A program made the translations under genes and the position numbers. The notes under the pieces are model-generated. The model saw only the letters and a list, made by a program, of their open reading frames with translations. It had not been told where the DNA came from and did no database searches. A DNA stretch of 40,620 nucleotides, taken from contig CAZSWP010000004.1 of NCBI GenBank assembly GCA_964610875.1, positions 65,469-106,088 of the forward strand. Direction: 5' to 3'. Position 1 is the first letter of the stretch, and each line of letters starts with the position of its first letter. Source of the DNA: an uncultured archaeon. Lineage in GTDB: Archaea > Asgardarchaeota > Thorarchaeia > Thorarchaeales > Thorarchaeaceae. Positions 2,747 through 13,403 of this stretch are shown here, one piece after another.

Positions 2747-3121
2747 ATGACGCTCACACCATCTCTATCTTCTGACCTCTGGACGAAAGCCAAGAATCAA
2801 CGGCTCCATTATGTTTTTCGTGAGCAGGCTCTTCTCAACCTTTTGGATTTTGATATGAACCAAGTTGTCACTTATTGTCATACTCTTCTCAAGTCATCTG
2901 ATGATGAGGAGTGGTTCATGGCGTTGAAAGTCTTGTCCTCTTCAGTCGACGAAGCCGCACTCAATATTTTGAGCGATTATTACAGTGCGTTAACTGACCG
3001 TCGTCGATATATTGTTCTTCAATACATCCAACGCGCATTGCAACGACGAGTCCAAAACCAAACAAAAATGAAGCAAAAAAGCGTAATAGGTGTTACGGCT
3101 GTGCAAATGACTCGATTTTAG
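2747..3121 (+). CDS. Hypothetical alpha-helical protein (HEAT-repeat-like)
   Basis: LLKSSDDEEWFMALKVLSS..DEAALNIL resembles a HEAT/PBS repeat. It is divergent from the upstream gene. Confidence 0.55.
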   Translation: MTLTPSLSSDLWTKAKNQRLHYVFREQALLNLLDFDMNQVVTYCHTLLKSSDDEEWFMALKVLSSSVDEAALNILSDYYSALTDRRRYIVLQYIQRALQRRVQNQTKMKQKSVIGVTAVQMTRF

Positions 3122-3310
3122 AGCAATCATATTACTTATTTTATCATTTAGAGGCTTATTTGTAATACGTTTTGCGTAGCAGTTTCAATAATATCTCAAA
3201 ACCATATTCAGAGATATATGGCATATCAATCGTATAAAGCGTAACCTCTTTTTTCCAACTTGTGTTCTACATACACAGATGACAAGAAAGGTTGACACGG
3301 AGAAAAGGCA

Positions 3311-3907
3311 ATGCAAGAACAGATGTTCCTACTGATGATAGCGAACCTCTACTTCGCGGTAGCATGGACACCCGCAATCGTGATAGGAATAACAATAGTC
3401 AGAGGGATCCTCCTCCTGCGTGGAAGAAAGAGAGAGTTTGAGGACTGGACAAGGAACCCACTGATGACTGCTTTGTCAATAATCTTTCTCCCTGGGACAC
3501 TGGTCTACTTTGGCATCAGATATGTTCTCTCAAAACTTGCCAGAATACGCATTGGACACGTGAGAGGATCTGCAACATACGGGGAAGTGAATCTTTTCCT
3601 TGAGGTTGAAAAGCCGCCTCGCGTTGGTGTGGTGTTAGCTACCCTTTATGCTAGCATTGTTCTCACACTCTTCATCGCACTGACACTGCTTACCCTTCCT
3701 GCAATGTTTATTTTGGAACCGGTGTGGGTCCTAATTGCTTGGTATGTATCAGTTGGCGTTTTTTTCAATTCGTCTCTTCGCAGTGGGGACCTCTCATTAT
3801 TTGTCAGTAGTTTGAGAGACCATCCTCGGTCTGGTGTAATAGAGCTCTTTGTCTTTCTTGTCATACTAATGGTGATCTATTCACAGGTCTGGAGTGTAGT
3901 AATTTGA
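3311..3907 (+). CDS. Multi-pass membrane protein; looks like an M50-like/DUF3267 zincin peptidase homologue lacking HExxH
   Basis: About 5 hydrophobic segments. IFLPGTLVYFGIRYVLSKL aligns by eye with the family pattern (F)PGT.VHE..H...(C)KL. It overlaps the next ORF by 4 nt (TTGA). Confidence 0.7.
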   Translation: MQEQMFLLMIANLYFAVAWTPAIVIGITIVRGILLLRGRKREFEDWTRNPLMTALSIIFLPGTLVYFGIRYVLSKLARIRIGHVRGSATYGEVNLFLEVEKPPRVGVVLATLYASIVLTLFIALTLLTLPAMFILEPVWVLIAWYVSVGVFFNSSLRSGDLSLFVSSLRDHPRSGVIELFVFLVILMVIYSQVWSVVI

Positions 3908-6900
3908 GCATCAATAAGAAGCCAATAATAATCCTAGTAGTATTGTTACTAGTACTTCCTATCATCTTCCAAGAGAATGCTATTGCTGATGTTGCACTTG
4001 AAGAACATGGAGTTTCAAATATTGCTCCTGACCCTATTCAGGAATTCACGACCTCATCAGTGACAGGCTCTCTGATAGACTATGGGGAATTCCTTGTTAT
4101 TCATCAAACAGGACAATCTATTGAATCAAAGGGAGCGGAACTCACTTCGCTGCTCAATCAATGGGGTGTGTCTTCGATAAGTATCATGCCCTCCGAGCTT
4201 GAGTCATCGCCTCCTATCTTGAGTGATGCTCCCTGCCTGATTCTAGATGCAAGCTTGGGCTCAGAAAATGCTTCACTCCTTACAGACTCATTCATTCAGC
4301 TCCTCATACAATATGACCGTCCAATTGTTGTGATGGGACGGGCTGCATGGCTTCTCCATCGTCTCCACAAGCTGAGTTCACCCACTCTGACCATGTCGGT
4401 GGCGACCACAACCCAACTTGACCCCACCGACGTGGTCTACCTATCATATCCCTATAGCATTGATCAAAGTGCTACCTTAACATCTGAATCATTGGAACTA
4501 CCCAAAGATCGGGTTCAATCAGTTAGATCTCGTATCATTACTTTAACTGGTGGAGAGACCTCAAATCAATATCCTATCTTGCGATATGATTCATTTCCAC
4601 TGGATACATTTCTATTGGGACAAGAAGACCCCACTCTCTGGACAACCACAGGTGAAGAGATTTTCATTAACATTGTAGCCTATTCAACCGCATTGGGTGA
4701 ATCAACTACAAGTGATATTGTTTCCACTGCACAGAGCAATGGAACTATCGGTGGGGGCTTTGCGTATGGTCATGAGCCCTGTCTTGAGCCTGCTTACTAT
4801 TCGGTTCATATCATAAGGTCTCTCCTCAGTGGAACTGAATGGACAGATTGGAGTGCTACAAATTCCGAATTTGTAGAAAATGTTCTTACTCCATTATATG
4901 TTGATAACGGAACGCATGCTTGGTTTCTGAATCATTTCACAGATACAATCGAGAACTTGGACACAACCGCAATGGGACTATGGCTTGTTGAAACAATGAG
5001 TCTATCATCATCATTCGACTCATCACTTCTATCTGCATATCTTGCGGATAGTCAGAAAGGCGATGGTGGTTTTAGTAGTGTTCCCAATGCTTTCTTTGTA
5101 CTTGAAGCACTGAATGCCTCAGGCTCAATTGGTTTGATTGACAGTACGAGCCTGTATAACTGGCTAGTTGATTGCAGGGTGAACAGTGATGATACTAGTG
5201 ATGCTCAATACTGGGGCGGAATCGCCAAATCTCCTTATAGTGCACTACCAAAGAATCAGTACTCAGCTCTGTATCTGCAGTGTCTCGAGATTTTGGAGAA
5301 ATCACATCCTGATATTTTGAAACTTGTTGATTGGATTCTGGATGAGACCCAACAGGCTGACGGTTCTTTTTCTGATAGAAATACACCTGATAAGGATGTG
5401 GTAAGAGGTACATCGTCTGCACTGACTTCGCTTGAGATGCTTGGATATCTGAGTCCTGAGAATAGAACAAGTAGTCTTGGATGGTTAGAAGATAACCAAC
5501 TACCCTCAGGTGGATTTGGCACCAATACTGCATCATTAGATATAGTTGGAAAACCTCTTGAAACCTTCTATGTTGCAACTACCCTTAACGAATTAAATGA
5601 AATATCGTCAACCATGGCAAATAGAATATCCGACTTTGTTGAGAGTATTAGGAGTGACACAGGATTCGAGGGTATGGAAATGATTCCTTCACTATTATGG
5701 GGTGACTGGCTCGGACAAATCGCTCGATTCTCTCATGCAGGAACTTCATTAGGTATTGAAAACCTCACATCCTATTATCAAAAACATGAATCATTCTCGT
5801 TCTATATGCCTTGGACAAACGTTACAGTCCTTCCCGCTGAAGAGTACATGTATGATAATTACAGAACAAAGAGTGTCTGGTCTATCTACCATGGTCTCTT
5901 GATGGGTGCTCAATCGGCAATTGAACCTAAATCGGGGGCTTCTGTTGATAGTACCACATTTACTCTTGCTGCTCAATATCCCACAGGGCATTTCCGACTC
6001 TATGCTGGTGGAAGTGCTCATATGCAATATACTGTAGCCGCAGTTGAATCTCTGTATCTTTTGGATGAGATTGATTCTATTTACTATCGAAGCGCATTGG
6101 ACTCTCAAGTCCTTGCAATGTACTCATCCGGAAGCTGGTCTGATGCAGGTTGGACTTTGCGTCCATATACTTCATCACAATCAGCTATTGATTGGCTCTC
6201 TACAAGGACAGCTCTTCGATTGGGATTGATTGATCAGACGATGGCTTCAGAAATTGCATCTGTAATTGAATCCAGGATTCAGTATTCAGACCTCTGGGAT
6301 TTGAGCCGTGATGTTGCAACTCTTGCATTATTGAACGAGTCATTCAGCATTGATCTTGAGAGCATAGATAGTGCAAGCATATTGAGTACTTTAGGGTCAA
6401 GTCCATTCTCAGATGGCTGGTACAACGAATCGGCAGAGTGGCAACCGGTGGTTACAGCAGGTGTTCTCGAGATGCTCTCGATATTTGGTCTAAGGACTGA
6501 GGTGCTGGATATTACTGGTAACCGAATATCTGGTACTTCTCCTGATGGTGAATTGGGAGATGTTCTTGAAGTAACTGTATCCATCACATCTAGTAGTTAC
6601 ACACATGATGTGATTCTACATGCTTTTGGCCATGACCTTTTGTATGAGGATGTTGGAAATTCCGATATCCTACTAGTGAATGTTCCGAGCAGTTCTTCAT
6701 ATCTTGGAATTCAAAATATCTCACTTATGTTGCTAGATAGAGGTGACTCTCGTGCATTCAACAGAATTGAAATATCAATAAACACAACTATGACAGGGTT
6801 TCTCACAGTTGATACTCCAGAGATTCTACTTGGTGACTTGATTAACGGGTCTGTTTCATGGACTCTCGAAAATCTCGAAGACGTCGGAGAATGTACTGTA

Positions 6901-9900
6901 ATTATACGTCTTGGAGATCCTCCTTCTTATCAACAATGGACAGAGGATAGCTCTAGTCCGTATAGTTTCTCAATTCCCACTGTGGATTTCGATCCAGGTG
7001 TGTATAATCTTAGTGTGTTCATTAGTAGAGAATTTTGCACTACACTTGTACTTAGAGAAGAAGTAACAATTAATTCACCCATTGATACCTATATAGAATC
7101 TGAAACCGATCAGGTCTTGGATGTTGGAGATGTTCTACAGATTCCCATATTATTACGGTTTTCCAATAATGACTCGTTGGTAGCTTCCCAGAACATCACA
7201 CTCACTATCAGAAACTCAATTGGTACTATAGTACATACAGACTATCTAATAACTGAAGAAACAGAGTCCATGTTCGATTGGACCCCTGACCAGCGGGGCT
7301 CTTACTCATTTGATTTAGTTTTCGAGAGAAATGGTACTCTTGAAGGCTGTGAGTACAATGGTGCGTTCATTGCAATGGAGAATGCAACGCTTCAATGGAT
7401 ACTATCAAGTCCTCAAGAACAGTATTCTATGTATACTACTTCAGTTCTTCTCCAGACAATTAATGGTGCCCCACTTGTGTCTGAATCTATCTCAATATTA
7501 GTAAAAGCACCAAGTGGTCAAACCATAATTGATAGCGATTTCACAACAAATTCATCTGGACATATCGAGTTCTCCATTGTACTTGGTGAAAATGGTATCT
7601 ACACTTTGGATGCGGAATTTCTTGGTAAAGAATATGTGAGATCAATATCCAACAACACATCGCTAGTATCATGGTCATCTACAAATCTGGTCATTGATGG
7701 CATTCCATCAGATGGCTTGGTAAATGACAGCTGGACTATATGGGCTCAGTTATCTGATTCCATAGGTCAACCAATCGTTGGAGAAGCCGTCACTCTTAGG
7801 GTGACTTTGCTTCCTTCGACAATTGTTTATCAAACAACTCTGACGACGAACTCTACCGGTCATGTCAGTACTTCGTGGAGTTCATCCACACCTGGCAGCT
7901 TCCAATACACAGCAGAATTTGCTGGCACGCTTTCACTTGACCAAAGTGGAGACTCTAGGGGGACCGATCTGTACATTCCTGTGCAACTTGTCGTCCAACA
8001 ATTTTCCAGTTTGCAGGTTGGTTTTGAGGGGTGGGTTCTAGTCTATGCCACAGATCACACCCAATCGCCTGTATCGGGAGTATTAGCTGAATTCGTCGTC
8101 AGGGATCCTTCTAATTCCATTATCTTTCAGACTTCAGGTATCTTTGAGAATGGCTATTATAATGTAAGTTGGACTCCTTCCGTGCGAGGAGTCAATAACT
8201 TTACTGTGAGTTCGGACAGACAGTCTTGGTTTGAAGCCGCTTGCAACTCCGAATTGCTTGATGTGTTTGAATCTTCTATAATCACATGTGAATTCACAGA
8301 AACATTACTTGCACCTGCTAGAAATGTGTTACAGATTGAAGTTCTGGATACCTCTTCAACACCCGTTTCGGGAATTGATGTGAGCATCATAATAACTTTG
8401 AATGGCCTGATAATTACTGATGTCATTAAGACAACAAATATCGATGGTAGTATCGAAATATCAGTAGATTTCAATGAACCCGGCGAATTAGAAATTCTAA
8501 CTGAGAGTACAGCTGGAAATTGGTTACTTGAATCAGGGACATTCATTGAAGATACTGTGCTGGGGAAAACTACAATCGATTTGTTGATGAATGGCCTACC
8601 AATCTCTCAGGGAAAAGATCCGGGAATACTTGTAGAAGTAATCAGTTGGGACCTATCTCCACTCAATGGAGCCCATGTCAATATCACCATCGAACGGGCT
8701 TCTGATGGGTCTCTTGTCACACAAGCATTGCGGACTACCGGTATGGATGGTCGATGTGCTTTTGCTCATAGTTTCAATGAGATTGGTGACTTCATCATTA
8801 GGGCCGTATACATGCCATCTGGCATAAATGCAGAGAACAGTACCTTTCTTGTCCAGAGGGTCACTGTTGTACCTGATGTAATTCTCATTCATCCATTGGA
8901 TGCTACCGTGGGAGGGCAAGTATCATTTGAGGTTGGGATTCTAGATAATCTAGATTCTTATGTTCCAAACAAATCACTACAACTTGCCGTCATTTATCAG
9001 GGAAACCCAATTTTCGAAAGCCAAGTTGAATCTGATAGTGACCTTGTGATAATACACTGGACTGCTTCCCAACGTGGAAGTCTTACAATTACACTCTCGG
9101 TATTTGGAGGTACGTACTGTTTAGCAAACTCGACATCTTCAGTAACGTCATGTTTTGAGAATGTGTCTAGTGAATTGACGCTTAACGCAACTACGATTGA
9201 TTTGTTCGAGTCAGTTCTACTGGAATATCAAATCAGTACCTCTGGAGACCCTGGAGGAATCGCAGTAATATTTGAGGTTCTGGATGTAAATCTCCTGCCT
9301 GTCTGGGATATGGAATTATTTACTAATGAATCTGGGTATGTTTCTACGCTGTATGTTGCTAATGACACACATGGCATACTAAAAGTCAGAGTTGCTCCAA
9401 ATGAGAATCAGTATCTCTCTGGTGGGATGAACCAGATTGATTTGACTGTTAAAACATCATGTATCGTGGATACAAACTTCAATCCATATCCACCAATAAT
9501 CAATGAAGAAGTGAATGTTACCATCAATATAGATAGTGAATTAGGATCACCTATTGATGGTCTTACAATATCAGTGAGAATAAGAAATCCAAGTGGAGTC
9601 TGGGTGGAGTATAATCCCTATGTTTCTGTGATAGAGGGATTGGCGTGGATTGTCTTCACTCCCGAGAACCATGGTGCATATCTTGTTAGGGTTGCTGCCA
9701 ACACTGAACCTACAACTCACTCGTTCACGATCGATGAACAACATACAGTATTTCATCCGACATCAATCGACCTTCAAATAGTATCTAGTCTGTTGCAGGT
9801 CAATGATAACCTGACAGTATCTGCACAGCTTTTCAATAGTTTTGGAGTAGGGATGAGTGGAATGAGGCTTACAATAGAACTCAATGGCAAAAACCCTGTT

Positions 9901-11679
9901 GAATTGACTACAAACGAAACTGGAATGGTCACTTGGATCAGTCAGATATCGGATGAAGGGTATTACATTGTGTCCGCGTCCTTCACTCTGACTGGAGTCT
10001 ATCTCTCCTCTGTAGCTTCTAAAGAAATTCATGTTCGACAATCAACTCAAATTCAGCTTTCCTATGATGATAAGACAGAGGTCATTGCAGAACTGATTTC
10101 ATTCAGTGCTCATATTCTCCTTGAAGATATAGATGGAGCTGCTCTTGAAGGAAATACGGTGTACTACTCTCTCTATCATGATGAGTTAGGTATTGTAAAA
10201 AATGGCAGCTTCATCCAACCTGGTCCGAGTGGAATAGATGTGGATATCACTATCCACCAAATGGGTGATTATACGCTTGTCTTCTACTTCACTGGGACTG
10301 AACATTATCATCCATCAAGTACAGCACTGGACTTGTTTGTTCGAGGAACATCACTGACGATAATTGATGGCATAGGTTCTATCCCGAGGAACAGCTCAGA
10401 ATTGATATCGATAGAGGTTCTAGATGAAATTGGATTTGCAATTGATACATCAAGTCTTTCCTATGTACTGAATCTCTCTGGTCCTACATCCTCTTTAGAC
10501 GGTCGAATCACGTCTAGTGGGACATCATTGTATGTGAATATTACAGGCTTACCTATTGGCTCTTACACACTTAATACAACAGTAATTGAAACCATACAAC
10601 GTTTGGGCTCAAGTGCAATATTTGAATTCAATGTAACAACCTGTGTAATTCTGAATGAAATTGAGTTATATCTTCCCGGTCTGGTTGGTGAAGAGCATAT
10701 CATGACTCTTCAAATGGTAGACTCATATGGAGAGAATGTCACAGACATACCTCTCTATGTTAGTCTATATGACTCAGAGGGACGGGAGATTTTCGGTAGT
10801 TCTCTGAGCAAAACAACAAAGATTGACACTGTAGAATCTTTGGCAACCATATCATGGACTCCGCTTCGTGCAGGTAATTATACACTTCACATCAGTTGCC
10901 TCGATGCTGAGTTTATCGTAGGTATTGAAAAGGAAACAGTTGTTTGGACCCGTCATAAGAGTACTATGAGTTCGGAAGGTCTTGATTCACTTCTCTCAAC
11001 CGAAGGCTTAGAATTCGCTGTCATACTAAAATCTGGGAGTTCTGGTCTAAGAGAACGCAACATTATCTTTACACTCATCTTGAATAACGAGCTCTACTTT
11101 CAAGTAATCCGGCTCACCAACTACGGAGGTCAATCAGACTTGGTGCTTGATCGGATACCTGCTGGCAATTTGACCATCGAAGCAAGATTCCTGGGTGATA
11201 GCAGTTATTCATCTTGTGAATACTCAGTCACAGCTGTTGTCCAACCAGTAATTTCAGTGATCGTAGAAGAGGCATACGGACTATATCTTGGTGTAAATTC
11301 ATCAGTCACGTTGAGTGTGAGTGTACACTGGCTGCAGATGGCTGATGTTCTCTTAGAAGCCTCTGTCTATGATAGTGTAGGAAACCTTCTCATCAATACT
11401 GAAGATTCTATTGGAAATGATACTGTGATCACAGTTTATTTCGTTCCTACAATAACGGGCAATTACTCGCTTCTAATATCAATGCAGGGAATCCCGGTAA
11501 TCAATAATTATACAGAGGAATTCAGATTCATGATACTCGAAGCACCTATTCAGATACCATTAGATGCTGGAATAACTCCAATATTAGGATCAGGTATGAT
11601 TCTAACTGTCATCGCGTTTGTTGTAAGGAAGAAATTAAACACCATAATAACAGACCTTCCTACTGAGTGGGAGTCGTAG
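3904..11679 (+). CDS. Giant surface protein: signal peptide, prenyltransferase/squalene-cyclase-like alpha/alpha-barrel repeats, tandem Ig-like domains, C-terminal membrane anchor
   Basis: N-terminal KK plus a hydrophobic stretch. Q..DGGF-type repeats (SQKGDGGF, QQADGSF, NQLPSGGFG, AQYPTGHF). Repeated T(N/D)..G...(W/F)...G.Y...A.F.G beta-sandwich motifs. C-terminal TM followed by RKK. Many N-X-S/T sequons. Confidence 0.85.
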   Translation: MSINKKPIIILVVLLLVLPIIFQENAIADVALEEHGVSNIAPDPIQEFTTSSVTGSLIDYGEFLVIHQTGQSIESKGAELTSLLNQWGVSSISIMPSELESSPPILSDAPCLILDASLGSENASLLTDSFIQLLIQYDRPIVVMGRAAWLLHRLHKLSSPTLTMSVATTTQLDPTDVVYLSYPYSIDQSATLTSESLELPKDRVQSVRSRIITLTGGETSNQYPILRYDSFPLDTFLLGQEDPTLWTTTGEEIFINIVAYSTALGESTTSDIVSTAQSNGTIGGGFAYGHEPCLEPAYYSVHIIRSLLSGTEWTDWSATNSEFVENVLTPLYVDNGTHAWFLNHFTDTIENLDTTAMGLWLVETMSLSSSFDSSLLSAYLADSQKGDGGFSSVPNAFFVLEALNASGSIGLIDSTSLYNWLVDCRVNSDDTSDAQYWGGIAKSPYSALPKNQYSALYLQCLEILEKSHPDILKLVDWILDETQQADGSFSDRNTPDKDVVRGTSSALTSLEMLGYLSPENRTSSLGWLEDNQLPSGGFGTNTASLDIVGKPLETFYVATTLNELNEISSTMANRISDFVESIRSDTGFEGMEMIPSLLWGDWLGQIARFSHAGTSLGIENLTSYYQKHESFSFYMPWTNVTVLPAEEYMYDNYRTKSVWSIYHGLLMGAQSAIEPKSGASVDSTTFTLAAQYPTGHFRLYAGGSAHMQYTVAAVESLYLLDEIDSIYYRSALDSQVLAMYSSGSWSDAGWTLRPYTSSQSAIDWLSTRTALRLGLIDQTMASEIASVIESRIQYSDLWDLSRDVATLALLNESFSIDLESIDSASILSTLGSSPFSDGWYNESAEWQPVVTAGVLEMLSIFGLRTEVLDITGNRISGTSPDGELGDVLEVTVSITSSSYTHDVILHAFGHDLLYEDVGNSDILLVNVPSSSSYLGIQNISLMLLDRGDSRAFNRIEISINTTMTGFLTVDTPEILLGDLINGSVSWTLENLEDVGECTVIIRLGDPPSYQQWTEDSSSPYSFSIPTVDFDPGVYNLSVFISREFCTTLVLREEVTINSPIDTYIESETDQVLDVGDVLQIPILLRFSNNDSLVASQNITLTIRNSIGTIVHTDYLITEETESMFDWTPDQRGSYSFDLVFERNGTLEGCEYNGAFIAMENATLQWILSSPQEQYSMYTTSVLLQTINGAPLVSESISILVKAPSGQTIIDSDFTTNSSGHIEFSIVLGENGIYTLDAEFLGKEYVRSISNNTSLVSWSSTNLVIDGIPSDGLVNDSWTIWAQLSDSIGQPIVGEAVTLRVTLLPSTIVYQTTLTTNSTGHVSTSWSSSTPGSFQYTAEFAGTLSLDQSGDSRGTDLYIPVQLVVQQFSSLQVGFEGWVLVYATDHTQSPVSGVLAEFVVRDPSNSIIFQTSGIFENGYYNVSWTPSVRGVNNFTVSSDRQSWFEAACNSELLDVFESSIITCEFTETLLAPARNVLQIEVLDTSSTPVSGIDVSIIITLNGLIITDVIKTTNIDGSIEISVDFNEPGELEILTESTAGNWLLESGTFIEDTVLGKTTIDLLMNGLPISQGKDPGILVEVISWDLSPLNGAHVNITIERASDGSLVTQALRTTGMDGRCAFAHSFNEIGDFIIRAVYMPSGINAENSTFLVQRVTVVPDVILIHPLDATVGGQVSFEVGILDNLDSYVPNKSLQLAVIYQGNPIFESQVESDSDLVIIHWTASQRGSLTITLSVFGGTYCLANSTSSVTSCFENVSSELTLNATTIDLFESVLLEYQISTSGDPGGIAVIFEVLDVNLLPVWDMELFTNESGYVSTLYVANDTHGILKVRVAPNENQYLSGGMNQIDLTVKTSCIVDTNFNPYPPIINEEVNVTINIDSELGSPIDGLTISVRIRNPSGVWVEYNPYVSVIEGLAWIVFTPENHGAYLVRVAANTEPTTHSFTIDEQHTVFHPTSIDLQIVSSLLQVNDNLTVSAQLFNSFGVGMSGMRLTIELNGKNPVELTTNETGMVTWISQISDEGYYIVSASFTLTGVYLSSVASKEIHVRQSTQIQLSYDDKTEVIAELISFSAHILLEDIDGAALEGNTVYYSLYHDELGIVKNGSFIQPGPSGIDVDITIHQMGDYTLVFYFTGTEHYHPSSTALDLFVRGTSLTIIDGIGSIPRNSSELISIEVLDEIGFAIDTSSLSYVLNLSGPTSSLDGRITSSGTSLYVNITGLPIGSYTLNTTVIETIQRLGSSAIFEFNVTTCVILNEIELYLPGLVGEEHIMTLQMVDSYGENVTDIPLYVSLYDSEGREIFGSSLSKTTKIDTVESLATISWTPLRAGNYTLHISCLDAEFIVGIEKETVVWTRHKSTMSSEGLDSLLSTEGLEFAVILKSGSSGLRERNIIFTLILNNELYFQVIRLTNYGGQSDLVLDRIPAGNLTIEARFLGDSSYSSCEYSVTAVVQPVISVIVEEAYGLYLGVNSSVTLSVSVHWLQMADVLLEASVYDSVGNLLINTEDSIGNDTVITVYFVPTITGNYSLLISMQGIPVINNYTEEFRFMILEAPIQIPLDAGITPILGSGMILTVIAFVVRKKLNTIITDLPTEWES

Positions 11680-11681
11680 AC

Positions 11682-13403
11682 TCAGACGAGTCCAGCCTTT
11701 TCAGCTATCGGAAAGGAGAGGATGAACTTACTACCAACAGATTGTTCATCTCTAGAAAAGTCATCAATAGCAATATCTCCATCATAACGTCGCGCTAATT
11801 CTCTCCCTAAGCCTAACCAAATCCCATGTATCGGTACTTTTGCTTTCATACGCCAGTCGAAGACTTTACCCTTTACACTATCAGGAAATTCTCCATGATA
11901 CGGTCCAATCTCTATATTGACTTCAGATCTCTCGATTGCAACGTTTGCTGCGATATGAATTGTAACAGTGTCTGACTTATGACTTGCTATACATTGTGCT
12001 ATTAGAGATACGAATCCTTGTTCAAGTTGTTCTTCAGCTTGAATAATGGCTGGTCTATTTGGAGGGTGATAGTCCAATATCGCTTCTCTTGCTGAATATT
12101 TCAAAGCAGCTGCATCAAAGGCTCTCAACAGAAGGGGCTCCACATCAAGTGGTTTCGTTTCTAACTCGAGACCTCTTGCTTCGGCAAGAGTTTCCACATC
12201 TTTAACCAAGTCTATGGACCGCCCTAGTTGGTTTTTCAAGATCTTATAATTCTCACTATTTTGGTCAAGTTCAGGATTCTCGAGATAGAGTAATTCCATA
12301 CCAAACAGTATTCCCTGTAACAGGTTATTCATATCGTGGCCCAAGAGATCCAGATAGAACTCTGCCCGGTCTCTTTCTTCAACAACCGCTGCAAGTAGCT
12401 CTGCAAGAGCCTCTGTTTCCTTTTCGGCAACAGTAATTGTCACATCGTTGATTAGCATCAATACAAGACTTGGTTTTCCAGTGGAATCTAGTTCATGCGG
12501 GACAATATCTATTTGGTAAAGTCTTCCTGGGTCTAGAATATCTATCACTCTGTATGGTAGTACCCAACTTTTTCCTGTGTTGAATACTTGAGTGATTGCG
12601 CCAGCGTAATCTTTTACCAACTGATTAGCAATCTTAATCGTATTCGTTTTCATTCCCATTACTTCGATTTGACCCCCTAGGTTCGTCATCTCTACTTGAC
12701 GGTCCCTTCGGATTACAATCAATCCAATTTTGATGCGTTCAAATAGATGAATGAATGTTGAGGTTCCTTGGACTATGCCTCCCACTGAAGCTACAATGAG
12801 TCCAAACGTCTGTAGTACTACTGCTTGACTGTTGAAACGAAACACTCCCGCTAGAATGCCTTCAGCGAGATAGAGGATGAGAAAACCAAAAATGACCATG
12901 AGTGAACCTTTTGCGTATTCTGGTTTTGACTGACGATATGGATTGCCCTTCATCAGATAGAGATAGTAAAGAATGACTGTAATGACCATTGGACCTATTG
13001 TGACAACACCAAGTATTCTGACGAATTCCAAATCAAAAATAAGAAAGAAACTGGCTACCACCGGAATACTTACTCCTGGAATCAAGTATGTCAACTTATG
13101 TTTCCAAGGCTCCACTCCTCTGAGCTTTACGATTGTACTGGATCGTAACATTTCAAGTCCAGCGAGGATCAATGGTGTGATAAGCATAAAATCAATGAAT
13201 CTTAGAAATGGTAGTGAAGGATCTCCTTCAGGCAGATTCATCCAGATGTAGAAATTAAGGAATCGCAATGCACCTGCAAGTGAAAATATAGCATATGCTG
13301 CATCCACCCACAATCTACGACGAAATGCTGAGTAGACATAATAAGATGAAACAAAAAGCGCTATACCAGTTGTTGCTAGCGCAATCTCATACATTGGTGG
13401 CAC
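11682..13403 (-). CDS. Membrane sensor histidine kinase-like protein (about 7 TM, PAS-like, HisKA, degenerate HATPase)
   Basis: Hydrophobic N-terminal ~210 aa and an H-box EFYLDLLGHDMNNLLQG. The C-terminal HATPase-like region ends GSKFILSFP. Confidence 0.85.
   Translation of the reverse strand: MPPMYEIALATTGIALFVSSYYVYSAFRRRLWVDAAYAIFSLAGALRFLNFYIWMNLPEGDPSLPFLRFIDFMLITPLILAGLEMLRSSTIVKLRGVEPWKHKLTYLIPGVSIPVVASFFLIFDLEFVRILGVVTIGPMVITVILYYLYLMKGNPYRQSKPEYAKGSLMVIFGFLILYLAEGILAGVFRFNSQAVVLQTFGLIVASVGGIVQGTSTFIHLFERIKIGLIVIRRDRQVEMTNLGGQIEVMGMKTNTIKIANQLVKDYAGAITQVFNTGKSWVLPYRVIDILDPGRLYQIDIVPHELDSTGKPSLVLMLINDVTITVAEKETEALAELLAAVVEERDRAEFYLDLLGHDMNNLLQGILFGMELLYLENPELDQNSENYKILKNQLGRSIDLVKDVETLAEARGLELETKPLDVEPLLLRAFDAAALKYSAREAILDYHPPNRPAIIQAEEQLEQGFVSLIAQCIASHKSDTVTIHIAANVAIERSEVNIEIGPYHGEFPDSVKGKVFDWRMKAKVPIHGIWLGLGRELARRYDGDIAIDDFSRDEQSVGSKFILSFPIAEKAGLV

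Follow-up and report, generated by a model that had tools for sequence, protein, structure and literature searches.

In proteases of the S2P clan, an HExxH motif located within a transmembrane (TM) helix supplies two zinc ligands and the catalytic Glu, and a distal Asp, with which a later helix starts, serves as the third zinc ligand. One such protein is TmcP, a DUF3267 (PF11667) intramembrane leader peptidase of the TMcin bacteriocin pathway that cuts an N-terminal leader, an activity that was abolished in a double mutant in which the His and the distal Asp were replaced by Ala (H68A and D158A; PMC13712780). The pseudoprotease concept is not new to the S2P family, given that EGY3, a plant member from the Arabidopsis chloroplast, is reported to be without proteolytic activity and to stabilise other proteins (PMC10978774). 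Our literature searches retrieved no archaeal or bacterial S2P-clan pseudoprotease, and nothing on the protein family or the gene pair described here. This pair resides in a 40,620-nucleotide (nt) stretch of the genome of an uncultured archaeon of the Thorarchaeaceae (hereafter, the window), and comprises a gene encoding a 198-amino-acid (aa) membrane protein and, directly downstream, a gene encoding a 2591-aa surface protein (hereafter, the small and the giant protein). Judging by sequence comparison, the two constitute a real and conserved module of an S2P-clan pseudoprotease and a surface protein, the function of which we infer. Unless another locus is named, positions are window coordinates on the forward strand, and residue numbers are those of the window's 198-aa and 2591-aa proteins.

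The small gene spans positions 3311-3907, begins with an ATG and belongs to a family specific to Thorarchaeia. The giant gene, encoding a type I surface protein, spans positions 3904-11679 and begins with a TTG that overlaps the small gene's TGA stop (aTTGA), such that the two genes overlap by 4 nt (TTGA, 3904-3907), with a GGAG located 11 nt 5' of the TTG. An earlier note on this DNA had described both open reading frames (ORFs), the 4-nt overlap and the string YFGIR at positions 3506-3520, and had these positions right; of the two segments in which it saw the remains of a membrane peptidase, PGTLVYFGIR corresponds to residues 61-70 of the small protein and GVFFNSSLRSGD to residues 149-160.

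The 198-aa protein matched no Pfam or NCBIfam entry at E≤1 and did not match PF13398, its family profile found no match among PDB sequences at E≤10, and genome-wide scans with PF11667 and PF02163 did not detect its gene. A HMMER profile search of 1.84 billion protein representatives returned only the protein's own family and one repetitive junk protein, reaching no HExxH relative. The family itself was recovered by a word-indexed search as 73 homologues, all of ~198 aa and 48-62% identical; where a source is named, it is Thorarchaeota, with one Promethearchaeia. A scan of the phylum with PF11667 led to small HExxH-bearing proteins of other Asgard lineages, in which the context of the motif (FPGVV-HELCH) resembles that of the corresponding segment of the small protein (FLPGTLV-YFGIR). 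We aligned twelve such M50B/DUF3267-like proteins, relatives from Hermod-, Loki- and Odinarchaeota, members of which match PF13398, PF11667 and PF02163 and one of which is named an M50 family metallopeptidase by NCBI, and compared this alignment with that of the 198-aa family using hhalign. The two alignments matched almost end to end, over 165 colinear columns (probability 94.1%, E 1.2e-7, score 55.2), with PG on PG, Y66, F67 and R70 on H, E and H, D160 on an Asp that is invariant among the active relatives (their D147), the hairpin on what follows HExxH, and R-P-R-S-G..E on the P..Q..E segment. As profile scores can be inflated for membrane proteins, we ran controls: reversed profiles scored 27.6 and 25.9, and 30 shuffles of the columns within 15-column blocks scored 23.8 at most. 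The correspondence to M50/DUF3267 motifs, which had been proposed in the earlier note, is thus supported by a profile-profile alignment scoring far above both kinds of control. Single subgroups of the twelve proteins gave weaker scores against the family (36.3, 30.5 and 23.5), and we therefore make no claim as to its closest sister subgroup. The hhalign result with a single sequence was marginal (E 0.039), and a pairwise BLASTP of the 198-aa protein against an active relative was not significant.

Three independent lines, each of them weak, pointed in the same direction. The AlphaFold2 (AF2) model of the small protein (pLDDT 87.5, pTM 0.81) comprises five long helices and a beta-hairpin, in the order of elements of an S2P core, i.e., a long helix, the beta-hairpin and further helices, and its fold matches are weak. 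Foldseek placed SpoIVFB at the top (probability 0.91, E 0.069) and mjS2P at rank 5, and VIA aligned RseP, SpoIVFB and mjS2P to residues 47-175 of the model at Z 4.6-5.1, within the background of helical proteins. MotA and PomA, which headed the VIA rows (Z 5.6-5.9), were discounted as generic packing of helices, as they lack the hairpin-centred order and fall within the same background. The nearest ESM Atlas clusters were Peptidase_M50B (score 0.86, 179-182 shared features), which we treat as a lead only. The similarity to M50 and DUF3267 families that the earlier note had proposed to look for was accordingly found, as homology at the level of profiles and as a top, though weak, Foldseek match to SpoIVFB.

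It could be argued that this similarity is a compositional artefact of hydrophobic helices and that the small protein is an unrelated membrane protein, as might be expected from the silence of Pfam, NCBIfam, the PDB sequences and the HMMER search, the non-significant BLASTP and structural Z scores that lie within the helical background. However, the profile score is twice that of any control, the PG, hairpin and Asp motifs stand in register along the colinear columns, and the Foldseek top match, the ESM Atlas neighbours and an equivalent locus in Hermodarchaeota (see below) all agree, leaving this explanation scarcely credible. We conclude that the sequence comparisons support the 198-aa protein being a homologue of the S2P-clan membrane zincins, of the small M50B/DUF3267-like type.

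HExxH was present in none of 85 family members, anywhere in the sequence. At the lost site (Y66-F67-G68-I69-R70, 3506-3520), which is aligned to H-E-L-C-H of the active relatives, position 66 is Tyr in 59 members, Phe in 9, Asn in 4 and His in 3, position 67 is aliphatic or Thr, and position 70 is Arg in 72 of 75. D160, which closes the kept distal Asp motif (N153-D160, NSSLRSGD, 3767-3790), is Asp in 78 of 80 members and Glu in the other two. Among 41 related genomes searched, the small gene is found in 19 of 24 genomes of the same family and in the sole genome of a second family in the order (30% identity), and in none of 15 genomes from other families; its ORF is intact in 20 of the 25 genomes of the order. 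The family alignment holds 23 invariant columns, including K40-R-E-F-E, W46, R48-N49, Y90-G-E92, N153, S158-G159 and E178, and no conserved His or Cys, and within the same genomes the small protein is better conserved than the giant one (35-61% versus 31-39% identity). The loss of HExxH, noted earlier in this one sequence, is thus common to a family that is otherwise strongly conserved. A lineage-wide loss of the catalytic residues from a protein that has stayed conserved and intact is, as far as sequences tell, what fits a pseudoprotease, and given that TmcP lost cleavage in the double mutant of its His and distal Asp, the small protein is very likely devoid of metalloprotease activity.

Two further elements of the small protein stand out. 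The loop between TM1 and TM2 (K40-N49, KREFEDWTRN, 3428-3457) shows little or no variation within the family and lies opposite a gap when the family is aligned with the active relatives; it would face outward if the topology is of the SpoIVFB type. Residues 81-99 (3551-3607), with the invariant Y90-G91-E92, form the beta-hairpin (AF2 strands E81-87 and E94-99), which, according to the model, corresponds to the membrane-reentrant beta-loop located after HExxH in S2P proteases. A conservation higher than that of the giant protein, together with the gain of the KREFEDWTRN loop, fits a new function and not decay. One may ask whether this function could be enzymatic, with D160, E92, E178, N153 and R70 forming a polar intramembrane site of a non-canonical hydrolase or transferase whose target would be the giant protein or a lipid. 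The invariance of the distal Asp and of several buried polar residues speaks for it, as does an overall conservation that exceeds that of the giant protein; yet the family has no conserved His or Cys, TmcP was inactive once its His and distal Asp had been mutated (PMC13712780), and no known S2P-clan enzyme works without HExxH (cf. EGY3, which is classed as a pseudoprotease, PMC10978774). We thus give a non-canonical enzyme very little credence.

To examine linkage, we fetched ~19 kilobases (kb) around each of 20 small-gene homologues, 18 of which provided relatives' loci with enough flanking sequence. In all 18, the small gene lies directly 5' of, and on the same strand as, a homologue of the giant gene (2579-2674 aa, 31-39% identity), and in most, FEN1 and a gene encoding a 550-700-aa cytoplasmic protein with no Pfam match lie upstream. 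The genome of the second family (G025), in which the small protein is 29% identical, shares this arrangement. Of the 24 genomes of the same family, 20 have the giant gene, 19 the small gene and 4 neither, and none of the 41 genomes searched had the small gene in the absence of the giant one. The adjacency and co-orientation of the small gene with its presumed client are therefore conserved across lineages, in keeping with the linkage that had been predicted from the window, with a single exception (G010).

The junction itself is more variable. Across 19 loci, the window included, the start of the giant gene overlaps the stop of the small gene in 8 and follows it after a gap of 0-2 nt in 2, and the others carry a spacer. 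The overlap that had earlier been taken to imply co-translation is thus present in the window, but only about half of the loci have it. In the spacers we observed a conserved inverted repeat, with a 5' arm AGTCCCGG and a 3' arm CCGGGACACC directly before the giant start (L018:11607-11777 (-), L019:6526-6663 (+), L020:12782-12941 (-) and L023:6582-6710 (+); weaker in L013 and L014), which could form a long mRNA hairpin setting the ratio of the two proteins, or else mark a processing site; the junction of the window has no spacer. Nearly all loci also have a Shine-Dalgarno-like string, GGGGTG or GGAGTG, 8-12 nt before the stop of the small gene (3880-3895 in the window). This string encodes the conserved C-terminal Gly-Val of the small protein, and hence part of that conservation may serve translation of the giant gene.

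The giant protein begins, at its TTG start, with two Lys residues, a hydrophobic stretch and an AIA-DV site, amounting to a normal signal peptide. After it come an alpha/beta domain (residues ~60-240) and a double alpha/alpha-toroid ectodomain (residues ~248-860, 4645-6483; AF2 model of residues 31-880, pLDDT 85, pTM 0.84), followed by a stalk of immunoglobulin (Ig)-like domains (residues ~870-2535, 6511-11508) with Pfam matches to Big_1 (62.5 bits), MG4, MG2, Filamin, DUF3244, Y_Y_Y and Ig_GEX2_N. The toroid matches Prenyltrans PF00432 (47.8 bits, cut-off 26.5), and these Prenyltrans and Ig-like matches confirm the layout of an alpha/alpha-barrel on an Ig stalk that had been read from the letters. 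In Foldseek, the toroid resembled oxidosqualene cyclase (9.3e-7), squalene-hopene cyclase (6.9e-6) and RabGGTase beta (5.3e-6). We considered and set aside a cyclase, a prenyltransferase or a thioester enzyme: neither DxDD nor CxEQ is conserved in the 19 giant orthologues, and the only invariant Cys of the protein, C1045, lies outside the toroid. In the absence of these catalytic signatures, we read the toroid as a binding module. Conservation is even along the giant protein and its length near constant across genera, suggesting a constraint on its overall size, be it total length or the number of Ig domains.

At its C-terminus, as the aligned C-termini of the 19 orthologues show, the giant protein is anchored by a TM segment (residues 2556-2574) that precedes a 17-residue tail (together 11569-11676). 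This segment is followed by RKK, and the tail carries the motif [LF]P.[ED]W (LPTEW, 11656-11670) with an invariant W2589, which looks like a docking motif for a cytoplasmic partner. As a ligand of the small protein this motif was rejected, since it persists in G010 and, by the predicted topology, lies on the opposite side of the membrane to the KREFEDWTRN loop.

Beyond Thorarchaeia, we scanned one genome per species with the profile of the HExxH-bearing proteins and obtained 11 loci, a small sample in which counts are uncorrected for relatedness. In Hermodarchaeota/Promethearchaeota (L077-L080), an HExxH homologue has, just downstream and in the same orientation, a gene encoding a 1636-1645-aa protein. 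This Hermodarchaeota protein, in which a signal sequence, a Prenyltrans domain (75 bits) and a C-terminal TM segment are present, aligns with the toroid region of the window's giant protein at equivalent positions, with E 4e-11 to 2e-5. A gene encoding a 277-312-aa membrane protein is located between the protease and giant genes in three of the four loci, and in L080 the two genes have RadA between them and FEN1 upstream, the latter being found in the window as well. In L070, a locus of Loki type, the homologue and a gene encoding a 909-aa protein (signal, Prenyltrans, Ig and TM) are divergently oriented, with a helix-hairpin-helix protein gene after the latter, and the Odinarchaeota locus L081 has a 778-aa Prenyltrans surface protein and a Hef-like helicase nearby. 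In L071 and L072 there is no giant gene, and the homologue neighbours RadA and a RadB/KaiC-like ATPase in the former and a Hef-like helicase in the latter. These Hermod-, Loki-type and Odin contexts indicate that the link of this type of protease to toroid surface proteins and to recombination genes is wider than Thorarchaeia, and the orthologous-looking locus of Hermodarchaeota, with its HExxH version, is a second respect in which the linkage proposed for the window proved conserved.

Taken together, these results lead us to a reading in which we have moderate confidence, namely, that the small protein is an S2P-clan pseudoprotease that has ceased to cut, but binds one of the giant protein's TM segments and serves it as escort, holder or docking subunit. 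The ancestor would have been an active HExxH peptidase whose gene already adjoined that of a large surface protein with an alpha/alpha-toroid and Ig domains, as is still the case in Hermodarchaeota. In the line of Thorarchaeia, both zinc-binding His residues and the catalytic Glu would have been replaced (Y-x-x-x-R), with the helix-hairpin-helix core and the distal Asp being kept and the invariant KREFEDWTRN loop gained. The small protein would no longer cleave, and the groove that formerly took the substrate, i.e., the hairpin and the region of R70 and D160, may still accommodate one of the giant protein's TM segments. S2P proteases take TM segments oriented with the N-terminus inside. As this orientation fits it better, the N-terminal signal/anchor of the giant protein would be the likelier ligand, the alternative being its C-terminal anchor. 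The small protein would be translated from one mRNA with the giant protein, immediately ahead of it, and would then become its membrane escort, holder or docking subunit. Of the earlier proposal of a pseudo-protease partner acting as chaperone, receptor or assembly partner, the homology, the loss of HExxH and the linkage are supported, while the role is still a matter of conjecture. Were this reading correct, a likely role and partner would be assigned to one of the largest conserved surface proteins of the Thorarchaeota, a group of which we know no cultured members.

Several observations weigh against this reading. A purely passive role does not account for the distal Asp having been kept. 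The matches to S2P folds are weak, at Z ~5, with MotA above them at Z 5.9 and no Foldseek E value reaching 1e-3. The small and giant genes are separated by a spacer of 42-165 nt in 9 of the 19 loci. Most of the relatives belong to one taxonomic family, so that adjacency partly reflects shared ancestry. Finally, G010, a genome that is 98% complete and in which the locus is contiguous, has an intact 2608-aa giant gene with an LP.DW tail and no small gene; in place of the latter, between the giant gene and the upstream gene that follows FEN1, are 438 nt (L068, G010:C63, 10814-11250) in which we found no remnant of the small gene, nor did the family profile find a copy elsewhere in G010. The partnership is therefore not obligatory, and the small protein is not indispensable for retention of the giant gene.

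A related possibility is that the small protein acts as a decoy or regulator, which would occupy the TM segment of the giant protein, or bind an active M50 protease, and thereby block intramembrane cleavage and shedding of the giant protein. Active relatives are indeed retained in the genome, namely three PF02163 proteins and an HExxH paralogue, the beta-hairpin and the distal Asp persist as elements of the substrate groove, and a precedent exists in iRhoms, which act against rhomboid signalling (PMC3149277, PMC6451368). The other M50 genes, however, are not linked to the locus of the pair, and this explanation, which likewise requires the giant protein to be bound and differs from an escort, holder or docking subunit in purpose only, strikes us as quite improbable. 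The HExxH paralogue is a 351-aa M50B-like protein (GPGVALHESSH ... NAPSDVD) encoded outside the window, at G000:C31:17771-18826 (+), in an unrelated neighbourhood.

Upstream of the small gene we identified a two-box module (3091-3201), consisting of box 1, TGTTACGGCTGTGCAAATG, at 3091-3109 and box 2, with the core TACGTTTTGCGTAGCA, at ~3166-3181, ~75 nt apart. A blastn-short search of the whole genome with positions 3091-3330 returned this pair of boxes, with unchanged spacing, at four other loci (C4:50157-50250, C4:47056-46946, C16:46716-46811 and C79:3179-3269), two of which lie 15-18 kb upstream on the same contig. From the shared boxes, the pair is probably co-switched with the other loci headed by the module, and the giant protein would thus be tied to a putatively co-regulated set of membrane and recombination genes.

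This module opens a different explanation, in which the small protein is part of a membrane-linked DNA-recombination regulon, e.g., in a complex with VirB4/HerA-like proteins, and its position is merely inherited gene order. Consistent with it, beyond the four other copies of the module, are the active homologues of other Asgard classes that have RadA, a RadB/KaiC-like ATPase, Hef-like helicases or FEN1 as neighbours (L069, L071, L072 and L075), sometimes with no giant gene, and the case of G010, where the giant gene stands without the small gene and the persistence of the tail motif implies that the tail has another partner. Inherited order alone sits poorly, however, with a same-strand adjacency with overlapping stop and start in two families, with homologues that adjoin Prenyltrans surface proteins in the Hermod-, Loki-type and Odin loci, and with a small gene that never occurs without the giant one in the genomes searched. 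On balance we regard a recombination regulon as unlikely, but by no means negligible.

It is conceivable that the pair forms the surface part of an Asgard-wide membrane apparatus, in which S2P-type and toroid proteins have a genetic tie to spare genes of recombination and repair (RadA, RadB/KaiC-like ATPase, Hef-like helicases and FEN1). Hermod-, Loki-type and Odin lineages could then signal a surface event by regulated intramembrane proteolysis of the surface protein, and Thorarchaeia by a permanent, non-proteolytic coupling. We hold such an apparatus to be doubtful; if true, it would represent a natural active-to-dead series, from intramembrane protease to adaptor, in archaeal relatives of eukaryotes.

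Several further features were observed around these loci. The recombination and repair neighbours of the active homologues comprise RadA, a RadB/KaiC-like ATPase, Hef-like helicases, FEN1 and a TFB-like zinc-ribbon protein, and the regions holding an active homologue together with such genes are L071 9929-13083, L069 1866-3662, L072 1748-4143, L080 4510-9752 and L081 397-8603. The 277-312-aa protein of the Hermodarchaeota loci (L077 8819-9652, also in L079 and L080) has a signal sequence and a C-terminal TM segment, and in the same loci a 141-aa zinc-ribbon protein with a weak DUF5817 match is encoded directly after the giant gene (L077 14634-15059, also L079 and L080); neither was seen in the window. 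In the window, a 573-aa membrane protein with a histidine-kinase-type H-box (GHDMNN) is encoded convergently with the giant gene (11682-13403, reverse strand), with 2 nt between the two stops; it has no Pfam match at E≤0.01 and is not syntenic in the relatives. A 124-aa ORF with no Pfam match (2747-3121) has its 3' end inside box 1 of the upstream module, and its homologues lie 5' of the small gene in L018, L020 and L022, and 3' of the giant gene in L010.

Compared with described systems, the small protein stands close to the small Asgard M50B/DUF3267-like peptidases (P0090-P0099 of Hermodarchaeota and L064-L066 of Loki type), with which it shares its length class, the order of helices, the PG motif ahead of the catalytic helix, the post-catalytic beta-hairpin, the distal Asp and the P..Q/G..E segment, as well as, in L077-L080, the position upstream of a homologous surface protein; these, however, keep HExxH, lack the KREFEDWTRN loop and have one or two extra C-terminal helices. 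TmcP is similar in having a minimal S2P core, from which gating helices 5 and 6 are missing, the distal Asp, and a place in the same operon as its membrane-embedded substrate (PMC13712780), but it is bacterial and active and has a small-peptide substrate, whereas the window protein is archaeal, has neither HExxH nor a PF11667 match and stands beside a 2591-aa protein. SpoIVFB, mjS2P and RseP (PDB 8vjl, 3b4r, 9j83 and 7w6z) share with the AF2 model the order of catalytic helix, reentrant beta-hairpin, helix and Asp helix and are its best or near-best structural matches; still, the window protein has no PDZ or CBS domain, gating helices or HExxH, the matches are weak (E 0.069; Z 4.6-5.1), and there is no PF02163 match. 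EGY3 is likewise an S2P-family member without HExxH (PMC10978774), yet it is eukaryotic, plastidial and far larger, no dedicated client gene adjoins its own, and its loss of the motif was independent. Farther afield, iRhoms and Derlins also combine an intramembrane protease fold devoid of catalysis with new conserved segments and a role as escorts or adaptors for membrane clients (PMC6451368, PMC3149277, PMC8641752), although theirs is an unrelated fold of serine protease ancestry in eukaryotes, and no homology is implied. What the present locus brings to this company is a presumed client encoded next door and an active enzyme at the equivalent locus of a sister lineage, and as the Hermodarchaeota and Thorarchaeia pairs can be compared, the cut made by the ancestral protease and the ligand held by its dead version become directly testable.

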